Translations under genes and position numbers: made by a program | The notes under the pieces: generated by a model | What the model was told of the DNA's origin: nothing | Seen by the model: only the letters and a program-made list of their open reading frames with translations | The model's database searches: none | Source: a virus | Taxonomy: Duplodnaviria; Heunggongvirae; Uroviricota; Caudoviricetes | Direction: 5' to 3' (one strand) | IMG/VR virus record: IMGVR_UViG_2551306526_000003 | Length of the DNA: 24,982 nt | Shown: positions 9,690 to 10,134 of the stretch, piece after piece | Position numbering within the stretch: position 1 is the stretch's first letter | Layout of the letters: each line of letters opens with the position of its first letter

Positions 9690-9730
9690 GTATCACCTTA
9701 AATAGTGGATTGCGGTAGTAAAGATTGTGC

Positions 9731-9946
9731 ATGGCCCGTCTGAAAAAGAACAACAGCGATTTGCACGATTTATTAGTAGATTATTATATAGTCGGTATGA
9801 CATTCATGTCACTGGCAGGTAAGCATTGCTGCTCTGATGGTTATATCGGGAAAAGGTTACAAAAGGCTGAGGGCATAATTGAAGGGATGTTAATGGCATT
9901 AGATATCCGGTTAGAGATGGATATCGTTGTTAATAACTCTAATTAA
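9731..9946 (+). CDS. Hypothetical 72-aa ORF; possibly a 5' fragment of sieB truncated at the early/late deletion junction
   Basis: Rightward-transcribed ORF where lambda carries sieB, ending just before the junction; I cannot recall the SieB sequence to confirm. Confidence 0.3.
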
Positions 9947-9979
9947 TACGCCAATTATTTACTAAAAGTTATTAAAAAT

Positions 9980-10124
9980 GGGGCGTTGAAACGCCCCCAA
10001 AAATAAAGGGTAATATATAACAGAAGGTTTATATAGTTAGAAGCAAGGTTGTGCTTCTAAAGGAAGTGGCTTGAGGGAGCCACTTATATGTTGGGGAGGC
10101 AAAGCCTCCCACAACATATCTTTT
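9980..10124. terminator. Cluster of 3-4 hairpins downstream of the porin gene, at the early-left/late-block junction; bidirectional terminator region
   Basis: GGGGCGT-tgaa-ACGCCCC (9980-9997); gaagca-aggttg-tgcttc (about 10039-10058); AAGTGGCT-tgaggg-AGCCACTT (10064-10085); near-perfect 15-bp stem ATATGTTGGGGAGGC-aaa-GCCTCCCACAACATAT (10086-10119) followed by CTTTT. Confidence 0.55.
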
Positions 10125-10134
10125 AGTAATCAAA

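Follow-up and report, generated by a model that had tools for sequence, protein, structure and literature searches.

A defective lambdoid prophage at the lambda attachment site

The window, that is, the whole stretch of 24,982 nt that was analysed, was 100% identical to positions 1523982-1548962 of E. coli APEC O78 (NC_020163.1), a genome described as O78:H9 ST23 (PMC4313913). It contains a defective (cryptic) lambdoid prophage at the lambda attB, inserted between ybhC and ybhB (toward ybhB-bioA), which is the classical lambda attachment site in the gal-bio interval. The element is bounded by attL and attR, has the gene order of a lambdoid phage and is missing genes that are essential for the lytic cycle. 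BLAST maps against ev099, lambda and PhiR70_1, together with the RefSeq annotation, showed that its gene order is collinear with that of viable lambdoid phages. N, cI, cro, cII, O and P are missing, Q, bet and terminase A are cut short, and the A-to-J run of head and tail genes is lost. In the RefSeq annotation the order is as follows:

Left end: ybhC, attL, int, xis, IS2 and several ea-type genes
Early-left: exo, a Bet pseudogene, kil, cIII, ea10 (DUF2528), ral
Middle: a quuD pseudogene 'missing N-terminus', then an opposite-strand porin
Late: essD, rrrD, rzpD, bor, ybcV, ybcW, ylcI, nu1
Right: a terminase-A pseudogene, a tail-tip (J) pseudogene, lom, tail fibre, a tfa fragment
Right end: an AraC-family regulator and IS fragments

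The initial annotation held that N, rexAB, cI, cro, cII, O and P are absent from the whole window, and on this tblastn, Pfam and RefSeq agree. The tblastn queries were the 57 proteins of the ral-to-Q interval of lambda, ev099 and PhiR70_1, and no homologue of N, rexA, rexB, cI, cro, cII, O, P, ren or nin was found in the window. The only matches below E = 0.01 were to ral, orf28, a fragment of Q and an AraC paralogue of ybcM; matches with E of at least 0.01 were taken as chance. A Pfam scan of all 166 stop-to-stop frames of at least 55 aa in the window gave no match to the repressor/S24, Cro, CII, O, P, Rex, N and Nin families. The families found were integrase, excisionase, IS2, ea-type, exo, kil, cIII and ral on the left, and Phage_antitermQ, porin, lysis, Bor, Nu1, gpA, J, Lom, tail-fibre and AraC on the right. 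No immunity or replication gene is annotated by RefSeq in this stretch, and none was found inside 9690-10134, the interval between the early-left and late genes.

From orf28 to the porin gene

In the RefSeq annotation ral, ea10, cIII, kil and exo keep intact reading frames, and orf28 is the last intact early-left gene ahead of the junction with the late region. The features from ral to the porin gene are:

9422-9619, minus strand: ral (antirestriction), intact, 66 aa; 98.5% identity to lambda Ral; PF11058 at E=7e-48
9603-9689, minus strand: orf28; 100% identity to lambda orf28 (lambda 34271-34357)
9690-9726: intergenic DNA of lambda type (lambda 34358-34394), the last stretch that is unambiguously early-left, with zero sieB bases
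9727-9730: deletion junction; 4-bp microhomology GTGC, of which both parental endpoints carry a copy and one is kept
9728-9946, plus strand: 3' fragment of Q (quuD/Q21-type antiterminator), codons 56-127 and the stop
9947-10134: native Q-porin spacer, 188 bp from the Q stop to the porin stop, with stable hairpins
9980-9997, 10014-10035, 10037-10060, 10064-10085 and 10086-10119: hairpins of the spacer, with a long-range closing stem
10135-11217, minus strand: prophage porin (OmpC/NmpC/OmpD-like), intact, 360 aa, convergent with Q

The direct junction between the early-left arm and the late region, first noticed from the sequence, is real, and base-level alignment placed the joint at 9727-9730. 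The limit of orf28 at 9689 had been read correctly, as the identity to the lambda gene confirms, and so had the distance of about 450 bp to the 3' end of the porin gene, which ends at 10135 and leaves 445 bp between. In BLAST against phage genomes, lambda homology was 99.2% over 9240-9733 (lambda 33908-34401), within a lambda-homologous block that spans 8512-9733. Homology to the Q-porin region of PhiR70_1 (99.4%) begins at 9727, as does that to ev099, and the matches of the two sides overlap at 9727-9733. At the joint, lambda reads GATTGTGC followed by CTGTC, PhiR70_1 reads GCGGGTGC followed by ATGGCC, and the window reads GATTGTGCATGGCC.

The initial annotation had proposed that the endpoints be placed by alignment to lambda and related phages, and a base-by-base comparison of the window with lambda, mEp332 and ev207 did so. 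On the left, the last base in common with lambda is lambda 34398, which lies 41 bp past the start codon of orf28 and 83 nt before the start of sieB. On the right, the sequence begins at nt 165 of the 384-nt Q gene, and codon 56 is the first complete codon kept. The parental copies of GTGC, one 41 bp past orf28 and the other at Q codons 55-56, are found in mEp332 at 6621-6624 and 14949-14952, and ev207 has the same pattern. Inspection of the sequence at 9727-9730 revealed neither an IS end nor an att-like core, and no long repeat.

A possible 5' fragment of sieB, which had been suggested next to orf28, was rejected from the DNA coordinates and from tblastn. Lambda homology stops at 34398 and sieB starts at 34482; lambda SieB had no match in the interval, and its best match (E=0.53) fell outside 9690-10134, elsewhere in the window.

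The Q gene had been listed among the absent genes, but codons 56-127 of a 127-aa QuuD/Q21-type Q survive at the junction. The ORF at 9725-9946 consists of the 3' 72 codons of Q, or the 3' 57% of the gene; codons 1-55, the ribosome-binding site and the upstream DNA are deleted, and lambda orf28-side sequence stands in their place. In tblastn, residues 56-127 of the ev099 and PhiR70_1 Q proteins mapped to 9728-9943 with 98.6% identity (E=2e-45), V76I being the sole amino-acid difference. For PF06530 (Phage_antitermQ), whose cut-off is 26 bits, the remnant scored 69.1 bits (E=4e-19), over profile positions 56-118 of 118 only, while the full-length ev099 QuuD (127 aa) matched positions 1-118 with 179 bits (E=3.5e-53). 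The family match is thus significant, but the remnant has neither a complete domain nor a frame with the native start codon, and it is at this remnant that RefSeq places its quuD pseudogene. Judged from its sequence, a functional antiterminator is very unlikely to be made from it.

The hairpin cluster across which the early-left and late regions were first thought to be joined does exist within the 445 bp, with a folding energy of -73 kcal/mol compared with -34.6 +/- 4.0 for shuffled sequences (z=-9.5). It is, however, native sequence and not the site of the deletion: the joint is a point at 9727-9730, about 220 bp to the left of the hairpins. The spacer was aligned with those of seven relatives in all of which Q is intact (ev099, mEp332, ev207, PhiR70_1 and three prophages), and mean column identity was 97%. 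A deletion scar or rearranged element was rejected as an explanation of the hairpins on the strength of this conservation, and the cluster appears to have had no role in the deletion.

On the minus strand, 9997-9980 reads GGGGCGTTTCAACGCCCC and then ATTTTT, and this hairpin with its T-run is likely to be the intrinsic terminator of the porin gene. The long hairpin at 10086-10119 is followed by CTTTT on the plus strand. Most likely, the cluster would serve to terminate the convergent Q and porin transcripts. It matched no Rfam family at the gathering threshold. The porin itself matched Porin_1 at E=4e-152 over residues 29-360 and is annotated by RefSeq as 'porin OmpC'.

Probable origin and history of the deletion

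Very probably, the interval marks where an integrated lambdoid prophage underwent one intrachromosomal deletion. The ancestor would have been a prophage at the lambda attB resembling the viable phages ev099, mEp332 and ev207, in which a left part of lambda type (int-xis-exo-bet-gam-kil-cIII-ea10-ral) is combined with a right-hand Q-porin-holin-lysozyme-spanin block of DLP12/phage-21 type. Both endpoints are collinear in one genome, with an interval of 8328 bp between them in mEp332 and of 8611 bp in ev207. The mEp332 interval holds a sieB-like gene, N, a cargo gene, cI, cro, cII, O and P, followed by ren, ninB, a methyltransferase, ninE, ninX, a ninF-like gene, rusA, ylcG and Q nt 1-164. Going by the intact relatives, the DNA lost would have comprised sieB, N with nutL, pL/oL, rex-type cargo, cI, oR/pR, cro, cII, O with ori, P, ren, the nin region, rusA, ylcG and Q codons 1-55. 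The deletion, as sized from these genomes, would thus be roughly 8.3-8.6 kb and a case of ordinary prophage decay. Because the lost genes are essential for lytic growth, it is expected to have arisen in the chromosome and not in a phage particle.

The parent was reconstructed from relatives at 96-99% identity. Among complete E. coli genomes no exact undeleted parent (near-100% on both flanks) was found; the relatives recovered by this search were 97-99% identical and had other deletion patterns. At the ral position, where the segment in the window is lambda-like, another gene is found in ev099, the phage that is the best relative overall, suggesting that the ancestor was a mosaic which no single reference represents.

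The ends would have been joined illegitimately under the guidance of microhomology, by replication slippage or end joining at GTGC, with one copy kept. As expected for such a deletion, a short repeat is present at both parental ends and a single copy at the joint, which is free of IS, att and long repeats. IS-mediated deletion was rejected, since the IS2 of the element lies 5.3 kb off and is missing from sister genomes that already carry the junction. A 4-bp microhomology also fits other joining routes.

By the same sequence signature, microhomology deletion has acted on the element at least three times, the joint at 9727-9730 included. The other two joints, and the IS2, are:

8512-8513: second internal junction; 2-bp microhomology AA; lambda 32222-33179 lost
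16807-16810: third internal junction; 4-bp microhomology GATA; terminase A nt 1048 fused to the 3' part of J
3074-4404, plus strand: IS2 insertion, left of xis (RefSeq IS2 transposase)

The joint at 8512-8513 removed gam and most of bet (about 1 kb), and RefSeq describes the product as 'Bet ... missing N-terminus'. At 16807-16810, lambda 1759-17966 is lost, amounting to 16.2 kb of head and tail genes, and RefSeq has partial terminase and tail-tip pseudogenes at this A-J joint. By our rough estimate a random joint would share at least 4 bases about 2% of the time, so that joints of 4, 4 and 2 bp are unlikely to be due to chance. Strain GPEC1054 has all three deletion joints and no IS2 at 3074-4404, indicating that the IS2 is younger than the deletions.

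The terminase-A breakpoint at 16807-16810 lies within 1-5 nt of that of a differently joined remnant in other strains. This breakpoint could conceivably be a real deletion hotspot.

Of 5426 complete E. coli genomes, 22 carry the junction with 100% identity to a 141-bp probe spanning the joint at 9727-9730; it was missing from the other 5404, and the remaining probe matches begin exactly at 9727 and sit in quuD genes. The junction is a convenient clone-specific PCR marker. Its carriers came chiefly from chicken, duck and other poultry, with some from human, dog and pig, and include O78 APEC strains. Over 30 kb of flanking chromosome, 3 substitutions were seen between APEC O78 and the O78:H4 strain E19057, a low divergence that fits vertical (clonal) inheritance of one event. 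In Eco_23-3571 the A/J joint is about 100% identical, the DNA from mid-int to mid-essD is lost and IS2 lies in rrrD. This loss indicates that decay is ongoing and that at least one descendant can do without the porin.

The joints of related prophages indicate that the same central region has been lost repeatedly, each time independently and between different endpoints. Prophages of the NCTC9087 type, which likewise lie between ybhC and ybhB, have an exo/'ren joint and keep the full quuD, and at the DLP12 site CFSAN061772 has an ea10/'rusA joint and ECCWS199 a cro'/quuD joint. TUM1887, at the ybhC site, keeps the repressor, the replication genes and Q and has lost head and tail genes. This pattern of decay agrees with prophage degradation and 'grounding' as reviewed (PMC6379469).

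It is also conceivable that the junction is a selected rewiring, in which porin read-through or an antisense promoter-like site drives the early-left genes without pL or N. The porin and early-left genes are all on the minus strand, orf28-ral-ea10-cIII-kil-exo now lie downstream of the porin, and the frames of ral, ea10, cIII, kil and exo are intact. A candidate site is present as well:

9812-9783, minus strand: sigma-70-like candidate GTGACA-N18-TATAAT, antisense in the Q remnant, 11/12 matches

This site faces orf28 and ral at 54 bp from the junction, and the V76I difference in Q is the change of CATAAT to a perfect antisense TATAAT. A post-deletion promoter-up mutation was rejected, since the same TATAAT allele is already present in the intact quuD of strain ECCWS199; the allele thus predates the deletion or is independent of it, and is not an adaptation to the new junction. 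Promoter-like matches in the region were in fact fewer than in shuffled sequences (2 vs 7.7). Read-through from the porin would meet the terminator-like hairpin at 9997-9980 (minus strand) ahead of the junction and further ones at 9427-9412 and 9284-9263 (minus strand) downstream of orf28 and ral, and N, the suppressor of such terminators, is gone. The later deletion of the early-left block, junction and porin in the sister strain Eco_23-3571 also speaks against strong selection. We consider selected rewiring improbable; were it true, the remnant would be a small constitutive antirestriction/recombination module, providing for example ral for the host.

About equally improbable is illegitimate recombination of two different elements, which might for instance have been a prophage of lambda type at attB and a DLP12-like phage, either superinfecting or co-resident. 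Such an origin would account for a left arm that is nearest lambda itself (99.2%), a right arm nearest DLP12-type late regions and a best overall relative, ev099, that has no ral. However, the viable phages mEp332, ev207, ev017 and PhiR11_1 combine lambda-type ral with quuD-porin in the same order and orientation, so that one mosaic parent suffices. Moreover, the ybhC/ybhB flanks and both att sites are normally arranged, and one phage, ev099, accounts at 99% identity for the int side as well as for the AraC/attR side. An assembly or sequencing artefact, in favour of which nothing was found, is refuted outright by the identical junction in 22 complete genomes from differing labs, hosts and countries and can be given practically no weight.

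Expected consequences of the deletion and comparison with known systems

A single deletion of this extent would leave the remnant without repressor immunity, induction, replication or Q-dependent late transcription. The initial annotation had likewise concluded that the element cannot establish immunity, replicate or activate late genes, and this mostly holds: the repressor and operators, N, O/P with ori and a usable Q are gone. The toxic kil, having lost its promoter pL, and the lysis cassette, having lost its activator Q, would be silent. The porin, bor, lom and the AraC-type regulator could be expressed from their own promoters. Upstream of the lysis genes there is one further feature:

11646-11667, plus strand: terminator-like hairpin and T-run, 140 nt ahead of essD, the holin gene

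This is a candidate tR'-like late terminator, of the kind that Q would override. Between the porin gene and essD, a consensus scan gave no site of the sigma-70 type. In DLP12, the lysis operon has a regulatory region upstream of essD (PMC7918800). By eye, a sigma-E-like candidate (GAACTA-N16-TCACT) was seen at 11235-11261.

That int, xis and attL are kept, as was noticed at the outset, is correct, with Int and Xis at full length:

1331-1345, plus strand: attL core GCTTTTTTATACTAA, perfect, adjoining ybhC
1419-2489, minus strand: int, 356 aa, 2 substitutions relative to lambda
2467-2685, minus strand: xis, 72 aa, 1 substitution relative to lambda, identical to ev099 Xis

All six catalytic residues of Int are present (R212, K235, H308, R311, H333 and Y342). 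In the source genome attR lies about 225 bp past the end of the window, beside ybhB. Its core has one mismatch, at core position 1 and outside the 7-bp overlap; the overlap, TTTATAC, is identical in the attL and attR cores, and the P arm is lambda-like (86-89% identity to lambda and ev099). Excision with Int and Xis supplied in trans is therefore plausible, and Rac provides a precedent of a defective yet excision-proficient prophage (PMC4632033). The normal drivers of int and xis, namely pL with N and the cII-activated pI, are deleted, so that spontaneous excision is expected to be rare. If it is still excisable, the remnant could be mobilised or cured with helper Int/Xis.

The truncated gene can be compared with the Q of phage 21 (PF06530), whose complexes with RNA polymerase have been solved (PDB 6P18, 6JNX). 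It is a distant relative of QuuD: the ev099 protein aligns with Q21 residues 20-100 at E=8e-7. The window differs in encoding only the C-terminal 57%, and QuuD residues 8-55, the stretch that aligns best with Q21, are deleted. With most of the Q21-aligned stretch lost, the remnant is not countable as a functional member of the family. The identity of the ORF at the junction is corrected: it is a truncated Q21-type Q, and neither sieB nor 'no Q' describes it.

Microhomology-mediated deletion is the usual route of prophage decay, and at all three joints of the window a 2-4 bp repeat with one copy kept is found and no IS or att, with nothing distinctive relative to the known route. What is seen here is routine prophage decay, already reflected in the RefSeq pseudogene annotation. 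Its importance is small, and lies in base-exact endpoints for one more decayed lambdoid prophage, in an avian-pathogenic O78 lineage.

ev099 (Radostvirus), mEp332, ev207 and PhiR70_1 are 96-99% identical to the window in collinear blocks. On the left these blocks are int-xis, exo, kil-ea10(-ral) and the Q 3' half-porin-lysis segment; on the right they are cos-nu1-A 5' part, J 3' part-lom, and the AraC regulator with IS fragments by attP. Compared with those phages, the window is without 8.3-8.6 kb (sieB to Q codon 55), about 1 kb (bet-gam) and about 16 kb (A 3' to J 5'), and has gained IS2.

DLP12 of E. coli K-12 shares the late block, with a quuD-type Q, an opposite-strand nmpC/ompC-like porin and essD-rrrD-rzpD, as well as bor, ybcV, ybcW, nu1/nohD and a shortened terminase A. 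It has likewise lost its immunity and replication genes by internal deletion and kept cargo, and the Rac and Qin remnants are comparable. In contrast to DLP12, which is at argU, the element in the window is at the lambda attB with lambda-type Int, Xis and att sites; it keeps the early-left arm up to ral, and its deletion endpoints are unlike those of DLP12. The DLP12-type remnants examined have the full quuD, whereas Q in the window starts at codon 56. The remnant is a further example in a small series of related prophages, located at the lambda and DLP12 sites, in which the immunity-replication block has repeatedly been lost with varied endpoints; the outer-membrane cargo genes (porin, Bor/Iss-like, Lom) tend to stay.

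Deletion joints and continuing decay

Loss of the immunity and replication block was not confined to the APEC O78 remnant. Three more independent deletion joints were found in related prophages, with different endpoints in each, and every one of them takes out this block:

Deletion joints in related prophages
CFSAN061772 (L005), 12437-12634: ea10 joined to 'rusA
ECCWS199 (L014), 8614-8837: cro' joined to quuD
NCTC9087 (L008), 7342-7473: exo joined to 'ren

Within the early-left arm of the window, a 958-bp deletion at 8512-8513, with the microhomology AA, has removed gam along with three quarters of bet from its N-terminal side, leaving the Red system incomplete despite an intact exo. 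Nearby, at 8750-8808 (-), is the sole Rfam match within the window: RF01804 (88.5 bits), the thermoregulator element of lambda cIII, which lies intact upstream of cIII.

The remnant has also continued to change within its lineage. The IS2 at window 3074-4404 varies between members: GPEC1054, VE-V10-F and KD602 are without the insertion, while DSM 103263, E3 and CH4790 carry additional IS2-bounded copies or rearrangements, with matches beginning exactly at 3074. Decay has gone further in Eco_23-3571, a descendant of the same remnant, where another deletion joined mid-int to mid-essD (L012, its prophage locus, 1919-4305). The entire early-left arm, the ral-Q junction and the porin gene are gone, and rrrD is interrupted by IS2.

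The terminase A breakpoint

The A breakpoint of the deletion that joins terminase A to J (window 16807-16810) lies 1-5 nt from that of NCTC9087 (L008, 17885-17900). Eleven genomes carry the NCTC9087-type remnant at the chromosomal site that the window also occupies, and in it A' is joined to the 3' part of a tail-fibre gene. Two different right-hand partners at nearly the same A breakpoint are not easily explained by common descent; the near coincidence may reflect a deletion hotspot or chance.

Cargo genes and the attR side

Most phage functions have been lost from the remnant, yet three outer-membrane cargo genes are intact:

Intact outer-membrane cargo genes in the window
10135-11217 (-): porin
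13009-13302 (-): bor (Iss-like)
17810-18409 (+): lom

Chromosomal prophage iss/bor alleles have been counted in the APEC O78 literature (PMC4313913). Adjoining attR, window 21818-24982 holds an AraC-family regulator and a cluster of IS fragments, and is 99% identical to 23562-26726 of the viable phage ev099 (L006), where the counterpart lies beside attP. The regulator and IS-fragment cluster are phage cargo and not later chromosomal insertions. Just upstream of the regulator gene, the 15-mer GGTTTTTTATACTGA (window 23385-23399) resembles the att core with 2 mismatches, and is probably a chance match.

Control regions around Q and lysis

Just upstream of the porin start and facing essD, a sigma-E-like motif, GAACTA-N16-TCACT, was noted by eye at window 11235-11261 (+), and a terminator-like hairpin lies at 11646-11667 (+), 140 nt before essD. 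These putative elements fit reports on the DLP12 lysis operon, for which a long leader and RpoE/Q control have been described (PMC7918800).

In the Q-porin spacer (window 9947-10134), several hairpins and a closing stem make up a module of unusual stability (z about -9), most likely with a role in termination. Conservation of the spacer among phages and prophages is 97%, and it matches no Rfam family. Within quuD, a near-consensus candidate antisense promoter-like site was found at window 9783-9812 (-). The APEC O78 remnant shares the perfect TATAAT allele (Q V76I) with some intact copies of quuD; in seven other relatives the hexamer reads CATAAT. This candidate site is reminiscent of the antisense promoter paQ of lambda.
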